Shown here: piece by piece, positions 53,518 to 64,000 of the stretch
Layout: the number at the start of each line of letters is the position of its first letter
Position numbering within the stretch: position 1 is the stretch's first letter
NCBI GenBank assembly: GCA_963717145.1
Contig: OY970325.1
Span: forward strand, 960,001-1,024,000
DNA length: 64,000 nt
Direction of reading: 5' to 3'
Origin: an uncultured Armatimonadetes bacterium
Lineage (GTDB): Bacteria > Armatimonadota > UBA5829 > DTJY01
Notes under the pieces: model-generated
Seen by the model: the letters and a program-made list of their open reading frames with translations, nothing else
What the model was told of the DNA's origin: nothing
Database searches by the model: none
Made by a program: the position numbers and the translations under genes

Positions 53518-54331
53518 CCTCCATGGCCGCCTGCGACCCGAGGGCGTCGAGATCATCCGGCGCGAGAAGGAGTCAGCGGGCGACTGCCTGCTTCTCGATG
53601 CCGGGGATGCGATCGCCTCGGGGAACATCAGCTATCGTCCCGGCGGTGAACCGGCTCTGGGGCTGATGAGCGAGGCCGGATACGATGCCATGGCGATGGG
53701 CAATCGGGAGTTCCACTTCCTCAAGCCGGGCCTGCAATCGAAGGTCAAGCTCGCCCGGTTTCCGGTGCTCTGCGCGAACATGGACTGCGGCCGTAGGGGC
53801 GATCCTTCAACGGTCGCCCGGTTTGAAACTTCGGCAGCGCCGCTGCGTTCTGCTATCGAAGCATCAAACCGGGCGACCGTTGAAGGATCACCCCTACGGC
53901 CGCACTATATAGTTGAGAGAGGCGGCTATCGAGTCGCCATCTTCGGCCTGACAGTCCCGATGATCACGAAGGAGATGCTCGCAAGCAGATTCAGCCCGTA
54001 CCGGTTCGAGGACCCGATCGAGACGGCGAAGGCGATCGTGCCCGCGTTAAGAGATCAGGCGGACTTGGTCATTGCCGTGACACACATCGGCATCAAGGCG
54101 GACGAGGCTCTCGCGCAGGAAGTGCCCGGCATCGACCTGATCGTTGGTGGGCACACGCACTCCGTCCTACATGAGCCGTTGATGATCGGCGGCACGAGCA
54201 TCGTTCAGGCCGGATGGTTTGCACATTTCCTGGGCAAGGTTCAGATAACCGGAGAACCCGGGAACCTGTCGATCACCGGCAGCCTTATCCCGCTTCAGCC
54301 GAGCGCGCGATCCAGGGACATTACGCCATGA
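53486..54331 (+). CDS. 5'-nucleotidase-type metallophosphoesterase carrying an in-frame palindrome
   Basis: HTNDLHG, DAGD, GNREF, THIG, GGHTH. Confidence 0.85.
   Translation: MPNLTILHTNDLHGRLRPEGVEIIRREKESAGDCLLLDAGDAIASGNISYRPGGEPALGLMSEAGYDAMAMGNREFHFLKPGLQSKVKLARFPVLCANMDCGRRGDPSTVARFETSAAPLRSAIEASNRATVEGSPLRPHYIVERGGYRVAIFGLTVPMITKEMLASRFSPYRFEDPIETAKAIVPALRDQADLVIAVTHIGIKADEALAQEVPGIDLIVGGHTHSVLHEPLMIGGTSIVQAGWFAHFLGKVQITGEPGNLSITGSLIPLQPSARSRDITP
53786..53904. repeat. GTAG-type REP palindrome inside a CDS
   Basis: 41-bp arms (53786-53826/53864-53904), 1 mismatch. Confidence 0.9.
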
Positions 54332-56199
54332 GTCATCCGTTGCTCGCACTGCCGATATTCGCCCCGATTGCGTTGATCTGCCTTGCTCTGGGAGGCATGA
54401 TCCTCCGCGCGCTCGGCATCAAGTCGGGAAGCCTGCTCGAGGCAAGCGTCTTCGGCACGGCCATCGGGTTCGGCGTTCTGAGCTACCTCGTGCTGGGGAT
54501 CGGACTGGCCGGCATGTTGACTGTGCCTGTCCTCATCGGCCTGCTGGTCGTTCTGGCGATCGTATCGTTCCCTGGAATGCGCATCCTCATTCCGGCTTTG
54601 GTGAGAGCCGTTCGGGAGCGCAGTGGGGCGAAGGTGCGGACGACTGACGCACTGATGCTGGTCGGCGCGAGTATCCTCGGCTCGCTGGCTCTCCTGGGGG
54701 CGCTTTCCCCGCCGGGACCGACGGATTGGGACGGCCTGGCATACCATCTGGCAGTCCCGAAGCTGTACCTGGCAGCGCATCGGATCTTCTACGTCCCATT
54801 CACGTCTCACTCGAACTTCCCGTTCCTGACCGAGATGCTCTATACCCTCGGCCTGGCGCTTCATGGCCCGGCGCTGGCGAAGCTCTTCCACTATGCGATG
54901 TTTATCGTGACCGCGGCGGGCATCTGCTCCCTGTGCAGACGACATATCAACCCGAGGGCGGGCGCGGTCGGCGCATTGCTCTTCATGAGCGTTCCACTCA
55001 TGGTCTGGGAAGCGGGAGTTGCCTACGCCGACATCACGACTGCGATGTACCTTCTGCTCGGCGTGTATGCCATCCTGAACTGGGAGGAGTCGGCCGATAG
55101 GGGATGGCTGCTCGCCGCGGGGATCGTGTCTGGGTTCGCACTCGGTACGAAGATGCTTGCGCTCGTTCCGATCGGGGCACTTCTCATGTGGGTGCTGTGG
55201 ATCGGGAACCGTAGGGGCGATCCTTCCACGGTCGCCCGCTGGGGGACGAGCATCAAATGGACCGCGCTGGTCGGCTTGCTGACGGCGCTCATCGGATCGC
55301 TGTGGTACATCAAGACATACTTGTATACCGGCAATCCGGTCTACCCGTTCTTCTACAACATCTTCGGCGGGCGCAACTGGAGTCAGGCAGACGCCGACAT
55401 TTACCACGCCGCTCAGCAGGCGATGGGAATGGGACGCTCCGTACTCGATTTCGTCATGATCCCCTGGAACGTCACGATGAACGGCGGGAAGTTCTTCGAC
55501 GCGCTACTGATCTACGGGCTGCTCGGGCCGGCGTTCCTCGGGCTGATCGCGGTGACCATACTCATCGGCAGGTCGGAAAAGGCGGTCGGACGGCTGGCAT
55601 TCGTCTGCGTTGTGTTCATCGCCGCCTGGTTCTTCCTCATGCAGAATGCACGGTACATCATCACGATCCTCCCGCTGCTCAGCGTGATCGCGGGAGTCGG
55701 GGCGGCCCGCGCCCTTAGGCAGTGGTCGGTCGGACGCGTGATCGTGAGCGTGTTCCTGGTCATCTGCGTTGGGCTCGGGATCTTCACGGGCTACGTGTTG
55801 ATCCTCGGGAGCGCTCGTGCGGCGCTCGGGATCGAGCCCGCCGAATCGTATCTCTCCCGGACCCTCGACTGCTACGACGCGGAGTCCTACGTGAACGATT
55901 TCACCCCGAAGGACGCCCGAGTGCTTCTCTTCGACGAGCCGAGGGGGTTCTATCTCGACAGGGCATACATCTGGGCCGATCCGGGGCATCACGAGTTGAT
56001 TCCGTGGGGCGACTTCCATTCCGGCGACGAGATGGTCCGGTTCTTTGCCGCGAAGGATTACACCCACGCGATCATCAACTGGAATTTCATGAAGGGCAAT
56101 GATGCATACGAGCAGCTCATCTTCCAGGCGATCGGCATGGGCCGGTTACTGGAGGTCTACGGCTCGAAGAGAGTCAGCGTCTACGAGATCAGACCATGA
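54328..56199 (+). CDS. GT-C (PMT/ArnT-like) membrane glycosyltransferase
   Basis: WDGLAYHL, GTK, TGNPVYPF, RY, many TM helices. Confidence 0.75.
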   Translation: MSHPLLALPIFAPIALICLALGGMILRALGIKSGSLLEASVFGTAIGFGVLSYLVLGIGLAGMLTVPVLIGLLVVLAIVSFPGMRILIPALVRAVRERSGAKVRTTDALMLVGASILGSLALLGALSPPGPTDWDGLAYHLAVPKLYLAAHRIFYVPFTSHSNFPFLTEMLYTLGLALHGPALAKLFHYAMFIVTAAGICSLCRRHINPRAGAVGALLFMSVPLMVWEAGVAYADITTAMYLLLGVYAILNWEESADRGWLLAAGIVSGFALGTKMLALVPIGALLMWVLWIGNRRGDPSTVARWGTSIKWTALVGLLTALIGSLWYIKTYLYTGNPVYPFFYNIFGGRNWSQADADIYHAAQQAMGMGRSVLDFVMIPWNVTMNGGKFFDALLIYGLLGPAFLGLIAVTILIGRSEKAVGRLAFVCVVFIAAWFFLMQNARYIITILPLLSVIAGVGAARALRQWSVGRVIVSVFLVICVGLGIFTGYVLILGSARAALGIEPAESYLSRTLDCYDAESYVNDFTPKDARVLLFDEPRGFYLDRAYIWADPGHHELIPWGDFHSGDEMVRFFAAKDYTHAIINWNFMKGNDAYEQLIFQAIGMGRLLEVYGSKRVSVYEIRP

Positions 56200-57488
56200 G
56201 AATGGAAACTCGAGAGTCGAAATCCGAGATCCGAAACTGGCGGATGTGGCTGGGGGGGATCATCGCCCTCCATCTGATTCTCGGCCTCGTCTACTGGAGT
56301 CATACCGCATACGGTGTCGCCCCTGATGAGGCGTTCCACGGCCTGTACGTTCGGCATCTCGCGGTCGATCACGCACTGCCCGTGTTCTCCGCCTCAGACA
56401 CGGGCGACTATGAGGCGCATCAGCCGCCGCTGTACTATGCGCTCGGCGTGCCGTTCTACCTCACTGCCAAGGCACTTGGGGTTGATGACCCGGGAGTCGC
56501 GGTGCGATTGCTCTCACTGATCCTGGGGGCGCTCTCGATCCTGGTCGTATACGGGACGATCAAGGCACTGATCCCCGGCCGCCAATCGACCGGTTTGGCC
56601 TGTGCAGGGTTCGTCGCATTACTTCCGATGCACCTCGCGCTGAGCAGTTCCGTGGGCAACGACATCCTGGCCGAACTGGTCTTCGGCGTCGCGTTGCTCT
56701 TGATGGTGAGATTGTTCGTAACCGGACCGACGATGTGGACCGGCCTTCTGCTCGGTCTTGTACTGGGGCTCGGATTGCTCGCGAAGACGACTTGCGCGCT
56801 CCTCTTCCCGGTGGCGGTCCTCACATACATACTGCTGTGGAGGCGGGGAACACTCATGGCGAGACGGGCAGTCTCAGAGATGGCGGCGATGCTCGGGATA
56901 AGCCTTCTGGTCGGCGGATGGTGGCTCGTCAGAAACGTTATGCTCTACGGCGATCCCTTCGCCCTGTCGCAATTCAACCAGGCGTTCTCGCACACGGCGA
57001 AACCGGAGTTCTTCCTCGTGGGGCAGGGGATGACCTGGACGGGCTATTTCATACTCGTTGGAGCATTGACCTTTGCCAGTTTCTGGGGTGTCTTCGGGCA
57101 CATGAGGGTCTTCATGCCGACGTGGGTGTATCTGTTTCTGGCGACCATCTCACTTGTCGCATTGGTCGGGAGCGTGCGATCATTCGTCGCGCTCAGGAGG
57201 GAATCGGTGGGGCAGAGGGACGCTTTGCTTGTTGTGATGGCGGTCGGGGCACTGGTATTACTCTCGTTCATACGCTTCAACCTGAGCTTCTTCCAGGCGC
57301 AGGGACGATATCTCTATCCGGCGATCATCCCGATCGCGCTGACCTTCGTGCTGGGCATCGAGCGCTTACTGCCGGAGAGGAACCGGACGCTGTCGGCCGC
57401 CGTAGTGAACGGTGGAATGCTGCTGTTGACCCTGACGGCGCTCGCCACCGCCGTCATCCCGAATCTGCCGTACCAGACACCGCCATGA
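56196..57488 (+). CDS. GT-C (GT39/DUF2142-like) membrane glycosyltransferase
   Basis: PDE..H, HQPPLYY, ND, SFWGVFG, QGRYLYP. Confidence 0.75.
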   Translation: MRMETRESKSEIRNWRMWLGGIIALHLILGLVYWSHTAYGVAPDEAFHGLYVRHLAVDHALPVFSASDTGDYEAHQPPLYYALGVPFYLTAKALGVDDPGVAVRLLSLILGALSILVVYGTIKALIPGRQSTGLACAGFVALLPMHLALSSSVGNDILAELVFGVALLLMVRLFVTGPTMWTGLLLGLVLGLGLLAKTTCALLFPVAVLTYILLWRRGTLMARRAVSEMAAMLGISLLVGGWWLVRNVMLYGDPFALSQFNQAFSHTAKPEFFLVGQGMTWTGYFILVGALTFASFWGVFGHMRVFMPTWVYLFLATISLVALVGSVRSFVALRRESVGQRDALLVVMAVGALVLLSFIRFNLSFFQAQGRYLYPAIIPIALTFVLGIERLLPERNRTLSAAVVNGGMLLLTLTALATAVIPNLPYQTPP

Positions 57489-58237
57489 AGCTATCGGTCA
57501 TCATCCCGGTCTACAACGAGCGAGACACCATCGAGGCGACCCTCGACCGCGTTCGGCAGTCGGAGGTCGAGCAGGAGATCGTCGTCGTCGATGACTGCTC
57601 GACCGACGGCACGCGTGAACTGCTCCAGTCCATCTCCGCCTGCGCCCCTCCTTACGAAGGAGGGGCCGGCCAGCAGGCCGGGGGAGGTTTGCATGCGGAC
57701 GCCCCCTCTCCCTCTCCACCCATCCGCCTGGTGCTCCACGAAAGGAACATGGGGAAGGGGATGGCGATCCGGAGTGGACTCGAGCATGCCACGGGCGACA
57801 TCGTCATCATCCAGGACGCCGATCTCGAGTACTTCCCCTCAGACTACGCGGCCATGATCGCGCCGATCGTCAGCGGCGAGGCCGACGTCGTCTACGGCTC
57901 GCGATTCCTCGAGCAGCGTCCAGAGATGCGCCTGCCGAACTACGTCGCCAACAGGGTGCTCGCAATCGCGGCATCGGTGCTATTCGGCGCGCGGATCACC
58001 GACGAAGCCACCTGCTACAAGGCATTCCGCGCTGATCTTCTCAGGAGTATCCCACTCACGTGCAGGCGCTTCGAGTTCTGTCCCGAGGTCACCGCGAAGG
58101 TCCTCCGCCGGGGAATCAGGATCGAGGAGGTACCGATCCGCTATGAGGCGCGCACGGTCGAGCAGGGGAAGAAGATCGGCTGGTGGGACGGCGTCGTCGC
58201 CCTCTGGACACTGCTGAAGTACCGCTTTGTCCGATAG
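57485..58237 (+). CDS. GT2 polyprenol-phosphate glycosyltransferase with repeat-derived insert
   Basis: SVIIPVYNE, VDDCSTDGT, GKG, QDADLEY, GSRF. Confidence 0.9.
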   Translation: MKLSVIIPVYNERDTIEATLDRVRQSEVEQEIVVVDDCSTDGTRELLQSISACAPPYEGGAGQQAGGGLHADAPSPSPPIRLVLHERNMGKGMAIRSGLEHATGDIVIIQDADLEYFPSDYAAMIAPIVSGEADVVYGSRFLEQRPEMRLPNYVANRVLAIAASVLFGARITDEATCYKAFRADLLRSIPLTCRRFEFCPEVTAKVLRRGIRIEEVPIRYEARTVEQGKKIGWWDGVVALWTLLKYRFVR

Positions 58238-58317
58238 TGGACACCGGCTTCTCCGTCGCCCGGCGACAGAGCCCCGCCTTTCACTGTGCCTGTCCCGAGT
58301 TCCCCACGGGCAAAGGG

Positions 58318-59340
58318 CTATGCCCGACGCCGTCTCATGCCCAGGAGTCCTACCAGTCCCCCAGCCAACGCGATAAGCGATGACGGCTCAGGAACCGTGG
58401 AGACGCGGAACCCGATACTGTTGGCCGAGTTCAACGGGTTCCAGCCGCCGCGAAAGGATGCCTGGATGCCTTGGACGTCGCCATTGAACGCACCGCCGCG
58501 CAGACCGCGCAAAGCGCGACCATCGTAGATTCTCGTAACAACGTCGTTCAACTCTTCGACGTTGCCGCCCTGATCGAACGTCCCGTAGGGACTGTTGGAG
58601 TCCTGGAACTCGCCGGCGACCGTAGTGGACATGCCGGAATCGATGGGGTAGGCGCCGGAGCCCGTGCGGTAGTTGGCGTTGTTGCCCGAGGCGTCGACCA
58701 TGTCCCGACCCGGGGCCGTGTCGCTGCTCGTGGCATACAGCCAGTAACCGGCGCTGGTACTGCCGCCCTTGTAGTAGGCAGCCTTATACCACTCGTCCTC
58801 GCTGGTGATTGCCCACTTCCATCCGGCGTTTCTCTGGATCGTGCGGCCATCAATGCCGTTGTAGCCGTCGAGAGTGTAGGCGCCGCGCTCGGTGGTGGAG
58901 GCATCCTGAAGTCCCGTCGGCTGGCCGTTACCGAGCCAGTTGGCGAAACGGCAGGAGTCCCAGTAGCTAACATAGTTCACCGGGCGGTTGACAAAGTCGC
59001 TTGCCACCGAGTAGGTGAAGCTGCCGGAAGCGCCGCTCTGCGTGATTCCACAGCCGTTGATGGTGTTTGACATGCCGATGTAGTACAGTCCGTATATGTC
59101 GGTGGCTGCTACGGCGTTGAGGAATGCGGTGTACTGCCCGGCGGTCACCTCGTACTTGCCGATGCTGTAGTTGTAGCCCACCGAGCCATAGCCGGTGGTG
59201 CCGTCATACATCATCACCCGGGTGTCAGCCGCATTACCCACGTCGCCAACGGGAACGGTCTCGATGGTGATGCTCGCCTGAGCGGCGATACCCATACCCA
59301 GCAGCATAAGCGCCGCCGTTACTGCGAATAACCTCTTCAT
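58318..59340 (-). CDS. FGE-sulfatase/CLec-fold PEP-CTERM protein, copy 1 (340 aa)
   Basis: Signal peptide, KYEVT, EWYKAA, GNVEE, RGG...GFRV, VPEPSS + TM + RRRRA. Confidence 0.9.
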   Translation of the reverse strand: MKRLFAVTAALMLLGMGIAAQASITIETVPVGDVGNAADTRVMMYDGTTGYGSVGYNYSIGKYEVTAGQYTAFLNAVAATDIYGLYYIGMSNTINGCGITQSGASGSFTYSVASDFVNRPVNYVSYWDSCRFANWLGNGQPTGLQDASTTERGAYTLDGYNGIDGRTIQRNAGWKWAITSEDEWYKAAYYKGGSTSAGYWLYATSSDTAPGRDMVDASGNNANYRTGSGAYPIDSGMSTTVAGEFQDSNSPYGTFDQGGNVEELNDVVTRIYDGRALRGLRGGAFNGDVQGIQASFRGGWNPLNSANSIGFRVSTVPEPSSLIALAGGLVGLLGMRRRRA

Positions 59341-59404
59341 CCTTTTCCCTCCAAAGTGTTGTGGCCTGGCCGCGCGGATTCTAGTGCCCGCTTGCGGCAA
59401 ACGG

Positions 59405-60454
59405 CTATGCCCGACGCCGTCTCATGCCCAGGAGTCCTACCAGTCCCCCAGCCAACGCGATAAGCGATGACGGCTCAGGAACAGCGGAGACACGGAACCC
59501 GATGGCGCGTTCATCGCCCGACGGGTAGTAGTTGGGGTTGCTGTACGAGCCCCGGAGGCCGGAGTCGCGGAAACCGTCGAACCCACGCCGCGGATGACGC
59601 GATGGGCGTAATCCCCGTCACATGCAATAGTCTCGTTCCACTCCCAGACGTTGCCGCCCTGGTCGAACGTGCCGTAGGCGCTCGCTGAGTTCTCGAACTC
59701 ACCGACGTTGGTTCGGTAGTAGGGGCTGCCGATGCATCGGATCCGCCCATTGTGATGTAGTTGGCGCTGTTGCCGGGGTCTGTGGCCAGCACCTGGTTGG
59801 CCGGCGCGGTATTGCTCTGGGTGGGATAAGTCCCAGTAACCGGCGTTGGTACCGCCGCCCTTGTAGTATGCAGCCTTATACCACTCGTCCTCGCTGGTCA
59901 CCGCCCACCTCCCCCCGGCGTTTCTGCTGGATGGTGCGGCCATCATCGCCGTTGTAGCCGTCCAGGGTGTATGCGCCGCCCTCGGTGGTCGACGCGCTCT
60001 GCAGCCCTGTGGGCTGGCCGTTGCCGAGCCAGTTGGCGAAACGGCAGGAGTCCCAAAAGCTCACGTAGTTCACAGGCCTGTTCGCCCAGTCGGACGCCAC
60101 GCTGTAGGTGTAGCTGCCGGAAGTGCCGCTGCGCTTGATGTTGCAGCCACGGCTGTCGTTCACCGTGTCCATGTAAGTGTTGTACAGCCCGTAGGTGTCG
60201 GTGGCTGCCACGGCGTTCAGGAACGCGGTGTACTGCCCGGCGGTCACTTCATACTTGCCGATGCTGTAGTTGTAGTCCACCGAGCCGCAGATCCGATCAG
60301 GGCCATATCCCCCCCCCGGCACACTCGCTCCTGAGAGCTCGCCGGCATTGCCTGCGTTGCCGACGGGAACGGTCTCGATCGTGATGGCCGCCTGAGCGGC
60401 TAATCCCATAGCGAGCAGCACGATCGCCGCTGTTACTGCGAATAAGCTCTTCAT
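59405..60454 (-). pseudogene. Copy 2, several frameshifts (possibly sequencing error)
   Basis: Same motifs split over frames between ~59580 and ~59930. Confidence 0.7.
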
Positions 60455-60518
60455 CCTTTTCCCTCCAAAGTGTTGTGGCCTGGCCGTGCGGATTCTAGTG
60501 CCCGCTTGCGGCAAAGGG

Positions 60519-61562
60519 CTATGCCCGACGCCGTCTCATGCCCAGGAGTCCTACCAGTCCCCCAGCCAATGCGATGAGCGATGACGGCTCAGGAACTGCG
60601 GAGACGCGAAAACCGAAAGAGCGGTCCTCGTCCGACACGTAGCGGCTGGCGCGACACGAGGCCCGGAGGTGGTAGTCGCCAGGACTGTTGAACGCGCCGC
60701 CACGCACGCCGCGATCGGCGTACCCGGCATATACAATAGCCTCGTTCCACTCAAACACGTTGCCCCCCTGGTCGAACGTGCCGTAGGCGCTTGCTGAGTT
60801 CTCGAACTCACCTACGTTGGTTCGAGAATAGGGGCCGCCGATGCAGAAGGTCTCGTCTGGAAGGGTGACGTAGTTGGCGCTGTTGCCGGGGTCTGTGGCC
60901 AGCACCTGATTGGCCGGCGCGGTGTTGCTCTGAGTGGGATACAGCCAGTATCCGGCGCTGGTACTGCCGCCTTTGTAGTATGCAGCCTTATACCATTCGT
61001 TTTCGCTCGTCAACAACCACTTTGCCGTCGACCCCTCATACCAAGTCTTCCGCTGGGCAGCAGTGGGTATGGTGACGGTCCCGGAATTGACACCGCCGCC
61101 GGTGATCAAATAGCTTCCCGATTCTGTGCTGCCACTTCCCTGGCCGTTAGTCAGCCAGTTTGCAAAGCGCAGCGTGTCATACCAGGACACGTAGTTGACC
61201 GGCCTGTTCGCCCAGTCGGATGCAACACTGTAGCTGTAGTTGCCGCTTGCGCCGGTGCGCTTGATGTTGCAGCCGCGGAGGTCGTTCACCGTGTCCATCT
61301 TCGTGTTGTACAGCCCGTATGTGTCGGTAGCTGCCACCGCATTGAGGAAGGCAGTGTACTGTCCGGCGGTCACTTCATACTTGCCGATGCTGTAGTTGTA
61401 GCCGACTGAACCGTAGCCGGTAGTGCCATCGTCCATTACGCGGGTATCAGGCGCATTTCCCACGTTGCCGACAGGAACGGTCTCGATCGTGATGGCCGCC
61501 TGAGCGGCGAGTCCCATACCCAGCAGCACGAGCGCCGCCGTTACTGCGAATAACCTCTTCAT
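60519..61562 (-). CDS. FGE-sulfatase/CLec-fold PEP-CTERM protein, copy 3 (347 aa)
   Basis: Intact, same architecture as copy 1. Confidence 0.9.
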   Translation of the reverse strand: MKRLFAVTAALVLLGMGLAAQAAITIETVPVGNVGNAPDTRVMDDGTTGYGSVGYNYSIGKYEVTAGQYTAFLNAVAATDTYGLYNTKMDTVNDLRGCNIKRTGASGNYSYSVASDWANRPVNYVSWYDTLRFANWLTNGQGSGSTESGSYLITGGGVNSGTVTIPTAAQRKTWYEGSTAKWLLTSENEWYKAAYYKGGSTSAGYWLYPTQSNTAPANQVLATDPGNSANYVTLPDETFCIGGPYSRTNVGEFENSASAYGTFDQGGNVFEWNEAIVYAGYADRGVRGGAFNSPGDYHLRASCRASRYVSDEDRSFGFRVSAVPEPSSLIALAGGLVGLLGMRRRRA

Positions 61563-61626
61563 CCTTTTCCCTCCAAAGTGTTGTGGCCTGGCCGTGCGGA
61601 TTCTAGTGCCCGCTTGCGGCAAAGGG

Positions 61627-62640
61627 CTATGCCCGACGCCGTCTGATGCCCAGGAGTCCTACCAGTCCCCCAGCCAATGCGATGAGCGATGACGGCTCAG
61701 GGACTGCGGAGACACGGAACCCGACAATGCTCGCCTCCGGCGGCCAGAAGGTGTAGCGCCGTGATGCCTGGAGGTAGATGACCTGGTGAGTGAACGAGCC
61801 GCCGCGGGTAAGGCGAAAGGTGTAATCCCCGTCGATAGACAGAATAGCCTCGTTCCACTCCGATACATTGCCACTCTGGTCGAACGTGCCATAGGGACTT
61901 TCGGAGTTCTGGAACTCACCGACCTCGGTCCGGTAGTACGGACTACCGATAAGGAGGCTGTTGCTGTAATAGTTGGCATTGTTGCCTGAGGCGTCGGCCA
62001 TGTCCCGACCCGGGGCCGTGTCGCTGCTCGTGGGATACAGCCAGTACCCGGCGCTGGTACTGCCGCCCTTGTAGTATGCAGCCTTATACCACTCGTCCTC
62101 GCTCGTCACAGCCCAGTTCCATCCTGCGTTGCGCTGGATGGCGCGCCCATCAGTGCCGTTGTAGCCGTTGAGTGTGTAGGCCCCATCCTCGGTGGTCAAC
62201 GCGTTCTGCAACCCTGTGGGCTGGCCGTTACCGAGCCAGTTGGCGAACCGGCACGAGTCCCAATAGCCAACGAAGTTCACAGGCCTGTTCGCCCAGTCGG
62301 AGGCTACGCTGTAGGTGTAGCTGCCGGAACTGCCGCTGCGCTTTATGTTGCAGCCATAGGGGTCGTTCACCGTGTCCATGTAAGTGTTGTACAGGCCGTA
62401 TGTGTCGGTGGCTGCCACGGCGTTGAGGAATGCGGTGTACTGTCCGGCGGTCACTTCATACTTGCCGATGTTGTACTTGTAGCCCACAGAGCCGTAGCCG
62501 GTAGTGCCATCATTCATTACCCGGGTGTCAGGCGCATTCCCCGAGTCAGCAACGTAAACGGTTTCGATGTCGATCGCCTGAGCGGCGAGTCCCATACCCA
62601 GCAGCACGATCGCCGCTGTTACTGCGAATAAGCTATTCAT
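61627..62640 (-). CDS. FGE-sulfatase/CLec-fold PEP-CTERM protein, copy 4 (337 aa)
   Basis: Intact, same architecture as copy 1. Confidence 0.9.
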   Translation of the reverse strand: MNSLFAVTAAIVLLGMGLAAQAIDIETVYVADSGNAPDTRVMNDGTTGYGSVGYKYNIGKYEVTAGQYTAFLNAVAATDTYGLYNTYMDTVNDPYGCNIKRSGSSGSYTYSVASDWANRPVNFVGYWDSCRFANWLGNGQPTGLQNALTTEDGAYTLNGYNGTDGRAIQRNAGWNWAVTSEDEWYKAAYYKGGSTSAGYWLYPTSSDTAPGRDMADASGNNANYYSNSLLIGSPYYRTEVGEFQNSESPYGTFDQSGNVSEWNEAILSIDGDYTFRLTRGGSFTHQVIYLQASRRYTFWPPEASIVGFRVSAVPEPSSLIALAGGLVGLLGIRRRRA

Positions 62641-62704
62641 CCTTTTCCCTCCAGAGTGTTGTGGCCTGGCCGTGCGGAGTCTATTGCCCGCTTGCGGCAA
62701 AGGG

Positions 62705-63709
62705 CTATGCCCGACGCCGTCTCATGCCCAGGAGTCCTACCAGTCCCCCAGCCAATGCGATAAGCGACGACGGCTCAGGAACCGCGGAGACACGGAACCC
62801 GAGATGGAGGCCCTCGTACGTCGGGTCGCTGGTACTCCAGATCCCTGCCAAAAGGGGGAAGCTGCCGTCGTAGTTGAACGAACCGCCACGCCGGACGCGA
62901 CGGGCGCCCCACATGGCCTCGTTCCACTCCCAGACGTTGCCGCCCTGATCGAATGTGCCGTAGGGACTCTCGGAGTTCTGGAACTCGCCGGCGACTGTAA
63001 AGTACTTGCCGGAGTCGATGGGGTAGGTGCCAGAGCCATAGCCAGGGTAGTAGTAGAGTTGGCGTTGTTACCGAAGGCGTCGGCCATGTCATTACCCGGG
63101 GCCGTGTCGCTGCTCGTGGGATAATCCCAGTATCCGGCGCTGGTACTGCCACCCTTGTAGTACGCAGCCTTATACCATTCGTTCTCGCTGGTGATCGCCC
63201 ACCTCCAGTCCGCCTCGCGGTTGACCGCCATAAGCTGGGCATCCGTCGTCGCGCCGTTGAGGTAGTACGCCCCGTCCTCGGTAGTCGCCAAGCCCTGTAC
63301 GCCCGTCGGCTGGCCGTTGTGCAGCCAGTTGGCGAAACGGGCCGAATCGCCCCAAGAAACGTAATTCACCGGCCGGTTCGCCCAGTCGGAGGCCACGCTG
63401 TAGGTGTAGCTGCCGGATGCGCCGCTGCGCTTGATCTTGCAGCCATAGGAGTCGTTCACCGTGTCCATGTACGTGTTGTACAGCCCGTAGGTGTCGGTGA
63501 CGGCCACGGCGTTGAGGAACTCGGTGTACTGTCCGGCGGTCACTTCGTACTTGCCGATGTTGTAGTTGTAGCCGACCGAGCCGTAGCCGGTGGTGTCGGC
63601 CTGCATTGCCTGCATCGCCCACCGTGACGGTGTCGATGTCGATCGCCTGAGCGGCAATAGTCATACCCAGCAGCACGAGCGCCGCCGTTACTGCGAATAA
63701 CCTCTTCAT
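62705..63709 (-). pseudogene. Copy 5, frameshifts near 63600 and 63060 (possibly sequencing error)
   Basis: Motifs split over three frames. Confidence 0.7.
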
Positions 63710-63773
63710 CCTTTTCCCTCCAAAGTGTTGTGGCCTGGCCGCGCGGATTCTAGTGCCCGCTTGCGGCAAACGG

Positions 63774-64000
63774 CTATGCCCGACGCCGTCTCATGCCCAG
63801 GAGTCCTACCAGTCCCCCAGCCAATGCGATGAGCGATGACGGCTCAGGGACTGCGGAGACACGGAACCCGATGCCGATGTCCTCGAGGAGCGGGTTGACG
63901 TTGCCGCGGAACGACGACTGCAGGGAGTTGCCGTTGCCGATGAACGAACCACCGCGCAGGCCGCGATAAGCGTCATAAAGCAAAGCCTCGTTCCACTCCC
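63774..64000 (-). CDS. Copy 6, C-terminal part (truncated by window edge)
   Basis: EWNE...RGGSF...IGFRVSAVPEPSS...RRRRA. Confidence 0.9.
   Translation of the reverse strand, partial: EWNEALLYDAYRGLRGGSFIGNGNSLQSSFRGNVNPLLEDIGIGFRVSAVPEPSSLIALAGGLVGLLGMRRRRA

Follow-up and report, generated by a model that had tools for sequence, protein, structure and literature searches.

The window, a stretch of 64,000 nucleotides from an uncultured Armatimonadetes bacterium, ends within a tandem array (array A) of head-to-tail genes on the minus strand, which encode PEP-CTERM proteins with the fold shared by formylglycine-generating enzymes (FGE) and C-type lectins (CLec). The first-pass annotation had counted at least six units; when the contig was extended past position 64000, the number was exactly six and the array ended 0.8 kb beyond the window. 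The stop-to-stop periods (1087, 1114, 1108, 1078, and 1069 bp) were as first reported. Tandem Repeats Finder was blind to the array, as its period limit is 500.

Unit A1 (58318..59340), the putative last gene of an operon, is intact and encodes a 340-aa protein consisting of a signal peptide, an FGE/CLec domain, a variable region (VR), and a PEP-CTERM tail; its VR (RGG...GFRVS, 58399..58500) is of the type found in diversity-generating retroelements (DGRs). Units A3 (60519..61562, 347 aa, VR 60600-60704) and A4 (61627..62640, 337 aa, VR 61708-61806) are also intact, and the body of A3 is the most divergent. In the assembly, frameshifts interrupt unit A2 (59405..60454, VR 59486-59592) near 59925 and 59585 and unit A5 (62705..63709) near 63605 and 63045, breaks that are missing from the first-pass annotation; the VR of A5 (62786-62890) is in frame. 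The first gene, A6, lies in the window with its 3' part (63774..64000, VR 63855-63956) and starts at the window-equivalent position 64796. Spacers of 64 bp separate A1/A2 (59341..59404), A2/A3 (60455..60518), A3/A4 (61563..61626), A4/A5 (62641..62704), and A5/A6 (63710..63773), all on the minus strand as are the units and VRs.

The array is flanked by a GT2 gene and a DNA glycosylase gene. At its 3' end, GC-rich hairpins (58238..58317, minus strand) lie between A1 and the convergent GT2 gene, with no template repeat (TR) after them. A leader of about 165 nt precedes A6 and is common to a sister array (array B) located 3 Mb away in the same genome. A promoter scan upstream of A6 gave one sigma-70-like site against 1.9 expected by chance, so that only the partial conservation of this site in the leader of array B counts. 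Standing in tandem behind one leader, the copies probably form one operon and would be co-transcribed.

Fold and predicted sorting of the array proteins

Pfam searches detected FGE-sulfatase and PEP-CTERM domains in all three intact in-window units tested; TIGR02595 was above its cut-off in 3/3 and PF07589 was found in 3/3. An N-terminal signal peptide was recognized by eye. The structure model (pLDDT 90 for A1, pTM 0.92) had TvpA as its top Foldseek match (E 1.6e-10; Z 22.8, rmsd 3.2 Å over 230 residues), and the comparison with CarF gave Z 23.1 and rmsd 3.0 with 238 aligned. The predicted fold of the array proteins is the FGE-type CLec fold. A true formylglycine-generating enzyme was rejected as an identity: its catalytic Cys pair, which we take to be located after the RGGS motif, is absent, as had been stated at first pass, and none of the 10 in-frame VRs has two Cys.

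An exosortase is encoded in the genome (PF09721, E 7.7e-55, at G000:4788648). The sequences suggest that the array proteins would be anchored by exosortase and would have a binding function. By equivalence to TvpA and Mtd (PMC5006420), the variable residues are expected to be solvent-exposed in one predicted binding site.

Constant junctions and mosaic bodies

The 64-bp length held for 5/5 internal spacers, as the first-pass annotation had noted, and their mean identity was 0.96 (range 0.92-1.00). The junction window of 230 nt, described there as near-identical even at synonymous sites, showed 90-94% identity in all 10 pairs. Among the four intact units, the tail (pS 0.13) and the signal peptide (pS 0.21) differed less at synonymous sites than did the two halves of the body (pS 0.52 and 0.42). 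Variation was not confined to the RGG...GFR tip: the bodies of array A have nucleotide identities of only 0.70-0.77 and hold further variable or indel-rich loops, in which 40-column identity falls to 0.32-0.46.

The 72-nt PEP-CTERM tails of array A are 97-100% identical to that of unit 3; the corresponding figure is 58-82% for the genes of 20 relatives and 53-93% for array B, the tails of which are not uniform (pS 0.64). In the two of seven outside tandem pairs that were parsed, tail identities were 0.83 and 0.65, and no homogenization was seen. A PHI-type recombination test gave p=0.0005, and the AU test rejected a single clade of array bodies (p=1e-4), in line with the earlier proposal of homogenized junctions and reassortment. 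The bodies are mosaic and not monophyletic. With the caveat that recombination makes gene trees unreliable, the bodies of A5 and A6 clustered with Planctomycetota DGR targets (support 98/100); the closest body to A1 was that of an outside gene (83.7% vs 79.2% within the array). Tails of such identity beside mosaic, non-monophyletic bodies point to recombination, which we infer to be the force that homogenizes the junctions of array A. Homologous recombination would keep the tail, spacer, and signal junction near-identical, and would shuffle body segments among the copies and with outside homologues.

Part of the spacer constancy is probably functional, because family genes in other genomes are preceded by the same 5'-UTR motif. 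In the A1/A2 spacer, about 10 leading nt resemble the start of a pyrimidine tract found 3' of DGR target genes, and the remainder is the family 5'-UTR motif with a ribosome-binding site; a loose pattern located the motif ahead of family genes at 9 outside loci, and a strict one matched 2/74 regions. When two recombinase families were searched, no gene was found within about 60 kb of array A or near array B, the nearest matches to array A being at about 60 kb (PF00239) and about 82 kb (PF00589). An integron-like or site-specific cassette array was rejected, as no dedicated recombinase of these families stands beside the array.

Adenine-directed footprint in the variable region

The RGG...GFR segment is highly variable, as first described (nucleotide identity 0.55, pN/pS 1.33). 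When the VRs were compared with the template of a relative from another genus (G007), 197/328 adenines were mismatched versus 128/749 other bases (10 of the 12 VRs). The counts were 100/163 and 50/344 for the VRs of array A only, and 20/33 and 13/75 for A1; the VR of A6 is the nearest to the template within array A, with 8/75 non-adenine differences. Structure alone would produce part of the contrast between adenines and other bases, because the constant residues sit on non-adenine codons.

In an alignment that left third positions unscored, third-base C was kept at 101 of the 119 AAC-aligned codons, whereas the codon use of the genes themselves predicts 75.3 (z 5.5). The third codon position was the least variable in the VR (0.30 vs 0.60 for the first and 0.56 for the second), unlike in other variable columns (0.46 vs 0.49 and 0.50). 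The length variation of the VRs also fits a DGR origin, because codon-length TR/VR indels are seen in intact DGRs as well. Against such an origin, the residues that NNC codons cannot encode (K, E, Q, M, and W) were not depleted in VR columns: they made up 11/151 there and 28/426 in other variable loops (p=0.85). The contrast of C with G at four-fold sites, again relative to those loops, reached only p=0.096. Judging from the sequences, the tip is a variable region of DGR type that bears the footprint of adenine mutagenesis. The first-pass annotation had proposed a repertoire of surface binders with a constant anchor and a variable tip; this is supported by the fold and by the exosortase in the genome, whereas the diversity of the tip, which had been ascribed to reassortment, is instead attributed to a DGR on account of the adenine and third-base C footprint and of homologues that are DGR targets elsewhere.

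The VRs have since drifted. Within array A, 153/686 non-adenine pairwise sites differ, and so do 39/104 constant four-fold sites, a proportion that resembles the bodies and not the tails (17/147). As to an IMH and a downstream hairpin for retrohoming, the VR 3' end of each unit still matches the template end, the spacers retain only the first repeat, or start, of the downstream pyrimidine tract, and folding energies overlap those of intact targets.

The DGR family in other genomes and in the host

Five of 17 template-bearing GTDB loci were complete (target-avd-RT-TR, RT being the reverse transcriptase), and complete DGRs with such targets occur in Planctomycetota. Their Avd was above the NF033474 cut-off and their RT matched PF00078; TR and VR differed at 13-20 of 30-33 adenines and at 0-1 of 75-77 other bases. 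The homologues of the array genes are targets of complete DGRs, so the family is a DGR target elsewhere. Three Armatimonadota relatives carry decayed cassettes: G007 and G009, of the same family as the host, have only a TR beside family genes, and G383, of the same class, has a truncated avd and an RT stub. Among metagenome loci of the array protein family, many of them on short contigs, 0/78 had an RT or TR nearby. In two IMG/VR contigs, a DGR of the same family has genes for phage portal, protease, or capsid proteins next to it; L068/L058 and L069 are flanked by phage head genes, and L057 has a partial portal match. A phage origin as the general rule for the family was rejected, with L056, L062, L063, L067, and L059 lying among cellular genes.

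In the host genome (one contig, 98% complete), PF00078 had 0 matches, and a custom HMM built from 8 DGR RTs gave a best E of 0.2 against the six frames. Avd was found neither with NF033474 (0 matches) nor with a custom HMM from 6 Avd proteins. Regarding the template repeat, no AAC-rich copy preceded a GFR-type motif and the template pattern was absent; blastn with the cassette returned VRs, among them the one in the B7 mini-gene, and a single downstream tract, located at 2.0 Mb, with no template. The only further TR-like match, upstream of array B, was rejected as a template, being the mini-gene VR. At 2.0 Mb the genome has another orphan trio of DGR type. The first-pass annotation had suggested looking past 64000 for an RT, a recombinase, or an exosortase; the exosortase was found, whereas no RT was detected in the assembly and no recombinase of the two families searched lies near the array. 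An unassembled replicon could carry an RT. An active DGR was rejected because searches of the assembly gave no RT, Avd, or TR, on the non-adenine differences from a relative's template being too many for one, and on constant sites differences from the template, and on constant sites that differ among the units; the array looks retired because no RT, Avd, or template was found and the VRs have drifted at constant sites.

Origin of the array

We consider it probable that the array is a retired DGR-target repertoire, the VRs of which were once hypermutated and the copies of which have been kept and are recombining. Each gene would encode a secreted FGE-type CLec-fold binder with a PEP-CTERM sorting tail, and its VR would be the work of earlier mutagenic retrohoming, directed at adenines and copied from a template repeat. 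The template would have belonged to a DGR family of which Planctomycetota still have complete members and Armatimonadota relatives decayed ones; the host genome would retain the products without the engine, and binding specificities, several of them and all fixed, would be exposed by the cell simultaneously. The order of these events is our reconstruction.

More tentatively, the arrays may be accreting libraries, in which Armatimonadota import finished DGR variants, or segments of them, that are slotted into an operon by recombination at the constant tail-UTR-signal junction. The variants, binders with a PEP-CTERM anchor, would be made in Planctomycetota and passing hosts by a mobile, sometimes phage-linked DGR family. 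The placement of the A5 and A6 bodies with Planctomycetota targets, the outside gene nearest to the A1 body, and tails that are the host array's own point in this direction. If so, the host would hold a fixed "germline" repertoire derived from the somatic hypermutation of other cells, without an RT or recombinase of its own.

It is unlikely that the array genes are live remote targets of an in-trans DGR on an element, such as a plasmid or phage, that visits only transiently or is missing from the assembly. The two IMG/VR contigs and the VR 3' ends that match the template are consistent with such an element, and remote and in-trans targets are documented in PMC5758913 and PMC10907252. However, one active template would equalize the constant sites, at which the units of array A differ widely and intact DGRs hardly at all, and the spacers hold only the first repeat of the pyrimidine tract.

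Rather less credible is a static array, with junctions made uniform by selection (on a conserved 5'-UTR hairpin and ribosome-binding site, a possible sRNA target site, or the sorting signal) or by very recent tail capture, and with no continuing gene conversion. The spacer motif at outside loci accords with this. Candidate sigma-54 sRNAs also show 7-9-nt complementarity to the array start regions, a figure obtained without a control and not counted as evidence; but synonymous tail sites are uniform in array A only, which peptide-level selection does not demand.

We give slightly less weight still to ordinary tandem paralogues that never met a DGR, whose tips were driven apart by recombination and by diversifying selection at an exposed loop. 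The pN/pS of the VR, the undepleted K/E/Q/M/W residues, and the lack of detected machinery in the genome would agree with this, and PEP-CTERM genes are known for rapid expansion by duplication (PMC1569441). It is largely refuted by the third-base C excess, which was computed given the amino acids, and by the TR/VR mismatches of intact DGRs; the quiet third codon positions of the VR and the real templates beside family genes in same-family relatives also argue against it.

Finally, it is highly improbable that an assembly or polishing artefact (mis-joined or cross-polished paralogues) produced the array, its mosaics, or its uniform junctions: indel errors in rpoB and rpoC, frameshifts in 4/12 full units of both arrays (A2, A5, B4, and B5), and the lack of spanning reads would allow it, but every unit has a unique VR and body, no exact repeat found between junction-centred segments exceeds 147 bp, alternative body blocks recur in other genomes, and a coherent leader is common to both arrays. 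The two public sequencing runs, each with less than 10% of the sequence words, came from diverged relatives, and none spanned the array, which is 6.5 kb long. Because rpoB and rpoC (2 of the 20 real genes compared) are also frame-broken, the frameshifts in A2 and A5, which are among the four, may be sequencing errors and are possibly errors of the assembly.

Comparison with known systems

The retired-repertoire reading can be set beside several described systems. Treponema denticola TvpA and its remote targets (PMC5758913, PMC5006420) share with the array the FGE-type CLec fold, a VR ending in the last strand, and several target paralogues distant from the RT. In contrast, no RT, Avd, or TR was detected in the array genome in this assembly, its VR lies internally, ahead of a PEP-CTERM tail, and its copies stand head-to-tail with near-identical junctions, whereas the targets of the TvpA system are scattered. 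Tandem variable-region genes are also present in a Stenotrophomonas multi-target DGR with eight tandem target genes (PMC5758913); these lie inside the RT cassette and match one TR, whereas the array VRs have ceased to match a single template and the array bodies do not form one clade.

Targets that outlive nearby machinery are known from cyanobacterial paralogues with remnant TR-VR homology, such as Nostoc all3226, and from degenerate DGR loci of Thiohalocapsa PB-PSB1 (PMC7517822, PMC10907252), for which the authors suggested that the machinery is dropped after a good variant is fixed. Those genomes keep a complete DGR elsewhere and their targets are mostly kinases or conflict-system sensors, while the array genome is DGR-free in the assembly and its orphans are clustered surface proteins. 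With PEP-CTERM/exosortase proteins (TIGR02595, PF07589, PF09721; PMC1569441) the array shares the signal peptide, PEP motif, hydrophobic helix, and basic tail, an exosortase in the genome, and lineage-specific expansion; PEP-CTERM genes are described there as mostly single-gene operons, whereas the array consists of tandem genes.

The literature searched showed no link between a DGR and PEP-CTERM and nothing on the array protein family. The DGR catalogue tables (PMC5758913, PMC8144416, PMC11661182) may already include the Planctomycetota elements. The array joins DGR hypermutation and exosortase surface sorting, two systems unlinked in that literature, and shows a possible fate of DGR products after loss of the engine, namely a multigene repertoire still evolving by recombination. 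RT-anchored DGR surveys overlook remote targets, according to PMC8144416, and orphan loci like this array escape them by design. Each unit would be a DGR product that has passed natural selection and whose template family is known, and the set makes the ligands of cellular CLec targets directly testable.

Structure of the array

Positions 58318-64000 of the window contained five complete genes and one partial gene on the minus strand (array A; A6 first, A1 last). In the sequence of the whole source genome (G000), the sixth gene started at window-equivalent position 64796 with no further unit upstream; accordingly, the "at least six" head-to-tail units of the first-pass annotation are six in all. 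Recomputed stop-to-stop periods (1087, 1114, 1108, 1078, and 1069 bp) agreed exactly with those reported there, and all five spacers were 64 bp long. The array is real. In the product of each intact gene, an FGE-sulfatase domain lay between a signal peptide and a PEP-CTERM tail. Units 2 and 5 were frameshifted in the assembly; however, these could not be called pseudogenes because rpoB and rpoC, near G000 2473000, were also frame-broken in the same one-contig assembly (2 of 20 real genes compared; 24 rows minus 4 antisense shadow ORFs). The rpoB and rpoC breaks imply that indel errors are present genome-wide in this assembly.

Divergence was not uniform along the unit. Comparison of the four intact units gave synonymous divergences of 0.13 for the tail, 0.21 for the signal peptide, and 0.42-0.52 for the body, while the RGG...GFR segment showed 55% nucleotide identity and a pN/pS of 1.33. 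The proposed contrast of a constant junction with a variable segment therefore held for that segment, but the bodies also varied, with identities of just 70-77%.

Origin of the variable tip

Judged from its sequence, the variable tip of the array genes is the variable region (VR) of a diversity-generating retroelement (DGR). VR codons varied at positions 1 and 2 and kept C at position 3. A motif search of 401 genomes of the phylum gave matches in 12, four of which were inspected. In two relatives of the same family (G007 and G009), the exact matches were AAC-rich template repeats (TRs) immediately 3' of a family gene without a reverse transcriptase (RT) gene; the other two were the template of an unrelated DGR and a VR. 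A GTDB scan yielded 17 template loci, of which 15 were in Planctomycetota and 2 in Armatimonadota. The complete order target-avd-RT-TR was found in five, two of them with a frameshift in the target or RT; three further loci had RT and TR, and nine lacked all or most of the RT. Between VR and TR of the five complete DGRs, 13-20 of 30-33 adenines differed, against 0-1 of 75-77 other bases; codon-length indels were found in two, and PEP-CTERM followed the VR in the targets.

In G383, a genome of the host class, a truncated avd and an RT stub came after the target (L167, G383:C82). This locus and L045 (G007:C71), L046 (G009:C62), L057, L061, and L066 represented stages in which a DGR had decayed through internal deletion, in the form of target and TR alone, target with truncated avd and RT stub, or a deleted target body. 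Two viral-collection contigs carried a DGR cassette adjoining phage head genes, and most complete DGR loci lay among cellular genes at unrelated sites; the element looks mobile, though not strictly phage-borne. At L068, L069, and L058, the family cassette directly adjoined lambda-type portal, S49 protease, or capsid genes, and at L069 a PEP-CTERM-tailed target end preceded avd.

Mutation footprint

When the VRs of G000 were compared with the G007 template, 197 of 328 adenines and 128 of 749 other bases differed (10 of 12 VRs; those of A2 and of B4, in the sister array B, were omitted owing to a frameshift inside the VR). The values for array A alone were 100/163 and 50/344. This contrast is partly structural; therefore, third codon positions, unscored in the alignment, were tested. 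AAC-aligned codons ended in C in 101 of 119 cases; for the same amino acids, the codon use of the genes themselves would predict 75.3 (z 5.5) and that of genome-wide long ORFs 64.8. Furthermore, the third position in the VR was half as variable as the first two, whereas in equally variable columns elsewhere the positions were about equal. The predicted depletion of K, E, Q, M, and W in the VR was absent, these residues being no rarer than in other variable loops.

Missing machinery

The first-pass annotation had proposed a search for an RT. None was detected in G000, a 98%-complete single contig, with PF00078 or a custom HMM, nor was an Avd or a TR found there. Between array A units, 39 of 104 constant four-fold sites within the VRs differed, near the body rate and well above that of the tails (17/147). 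No single active template can now be rewriting these VRs.

Another tandem trio of secreted FGE-fold genes (G000:C1:2001942-2005186, minus strand) bore a similar footprint: its C-terminal VRs resembled a template belonging to a second DGR family, with 14-15/23 adenine and 4-9/46 other mismatches in the 3' part of the VR. RT and TR of that family were present in the relatives G322 (C18) and G009 (C165). The host lineage seems to retain what DGRs have produced while losing the machinery itself. The last gene of the trio retained the full pyrimidine tract that trails DGR target genes.

Junctions and reassortment

The array A spacer was a hybrid. Its first ~10 bases matched the start of the pyrimidine tract, which followed 31 of 93 family genes, and the remainder was a 5'-UTR motif that also precedes family genes at nine outside loci. 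Because this motif recurs outside, part of the spacer constancy is probably functional. Tails were 97-100% identical within array A, whereas their identity was 58-82% with 20 relatives' genes and 53-93% with array B. The bodies were mosaic (PHI-type permutation, p=0.0005, 186 informative sites), and the closest pairs shifted along the gene. These results support the homogenised junctions and reassortment suggested earlier. In a tree, the bodies were scattered, with A5 and A6 grouped with DGR targets of Planctomycetota (98/100), and a single clade of array A bodies was rejected (AU p=1e-4, long-branch row L067 omitted). Uniform ends flanking unrelated middles would be expected from conversion or from unequal exchange at the junction. 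The results suggest but do not prove that bodies were imported from outside, because recombination also weakens the tree. Uniform tails on mixed bodies were not reproduced in the two outside tandem pairs parsed or in array B. A recombinase had also been proposed as a search target; no serine or tyrosine recombinase gene lay nearer than ~60 kb to array A.

Fold and likely role

The AlphaFold model of A1 (pLDDT 90, 58-sequence alignment) matched the FGE-type CLec fold, as anticipated. In agreement with the first-pass annotation, no VR had a Cys pair, which in true FGE follows the RGGS motif. TvpA, a DGR target, was the top Foldseek match (tied first by Z), and the VR forms the ligand site in TvpA and Mtd (PMC5006420). 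The likeliest predicted role of the array products is to present several binding specificities at the cell surface; such a putative display would serve in adhesion or in recognising neighbours or phages.

Tandem multi-target DGRs and remote targets (PMC5758913), remnant target paralogues (PMC7517822), degenerate DGR loci (PMC10907252), and rapid expansion of PEP-CTERM genes (PMC1569441) have been described. Among the papers searched, none was found to join DGRs with PEP-CTERM. Functionally, the array resembles a DGR repertoire, but it is not an active DGR. What is new is the exosortase-type tail following an internal VR, the operon-like arrays in a genome without DGR machinery, and the homogenised junctions on mixed bodies.

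Other copies and genomic surroundings

Array B comprised six full units (G000:C1:4050251-4056588, minus strand), its tails less uniform than those of array A and its spacers 50-80 bp long; frameshifts affected B4 and B5 in the assembly. It was headed by a mini-gene (4056684-4056971, minus strand) in which the signal peptide was fused straight to a VR and PEP-like tail, the body being missing; this VR closely resembled the template, with mismatches at 15/33 adenines and 7/69 other bases. Both arrays began with a 165-nt leader, homologous between them (80.6% identity), which suggests two operons. Leader copies with an inverted repeat lay at 1024797-1024970 and 4056972-4057150, with a partial copy at 4180841-4180872. 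In this conserved leader, the inverted repeat precedes a candidate sigma-70-like promoter and is also present in L005, L078, and L147; it is a possible regulator site.

A fused single copy (3685872-3687785, minus strand) carried further C-terminal domains in place of PEP-CTERM; by eye, it sits downstream of a putative ECF sigma factor gene. The exosortase sought beyond the window was encoded in G000. Array A was flanked by a convergent GT2 gene and by one for a DNA glycosylase. The GT2 gene and two genes for PMT_2-type membrane glycosyltransferases (window 54214-58237, plus strand) converged on the 3' end of the array; any link to glycosylation of PEP-CTERM proteins is conceivable but putative.

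Family genes were present in 21 of 53 genomes of the host class, and runs of adjacent copies only in G000, G032 (three), and G393 (two), most of these assemblies being fragmented. A single ORF (L121:4970-6973) held two family modules with a PEP-CTERM-like segment in between. At L072, L113, and L129, family genes were in tandem with unrelated PEP-CTERM genes, and the L072 junction was similar to the G000 tail and spacer.
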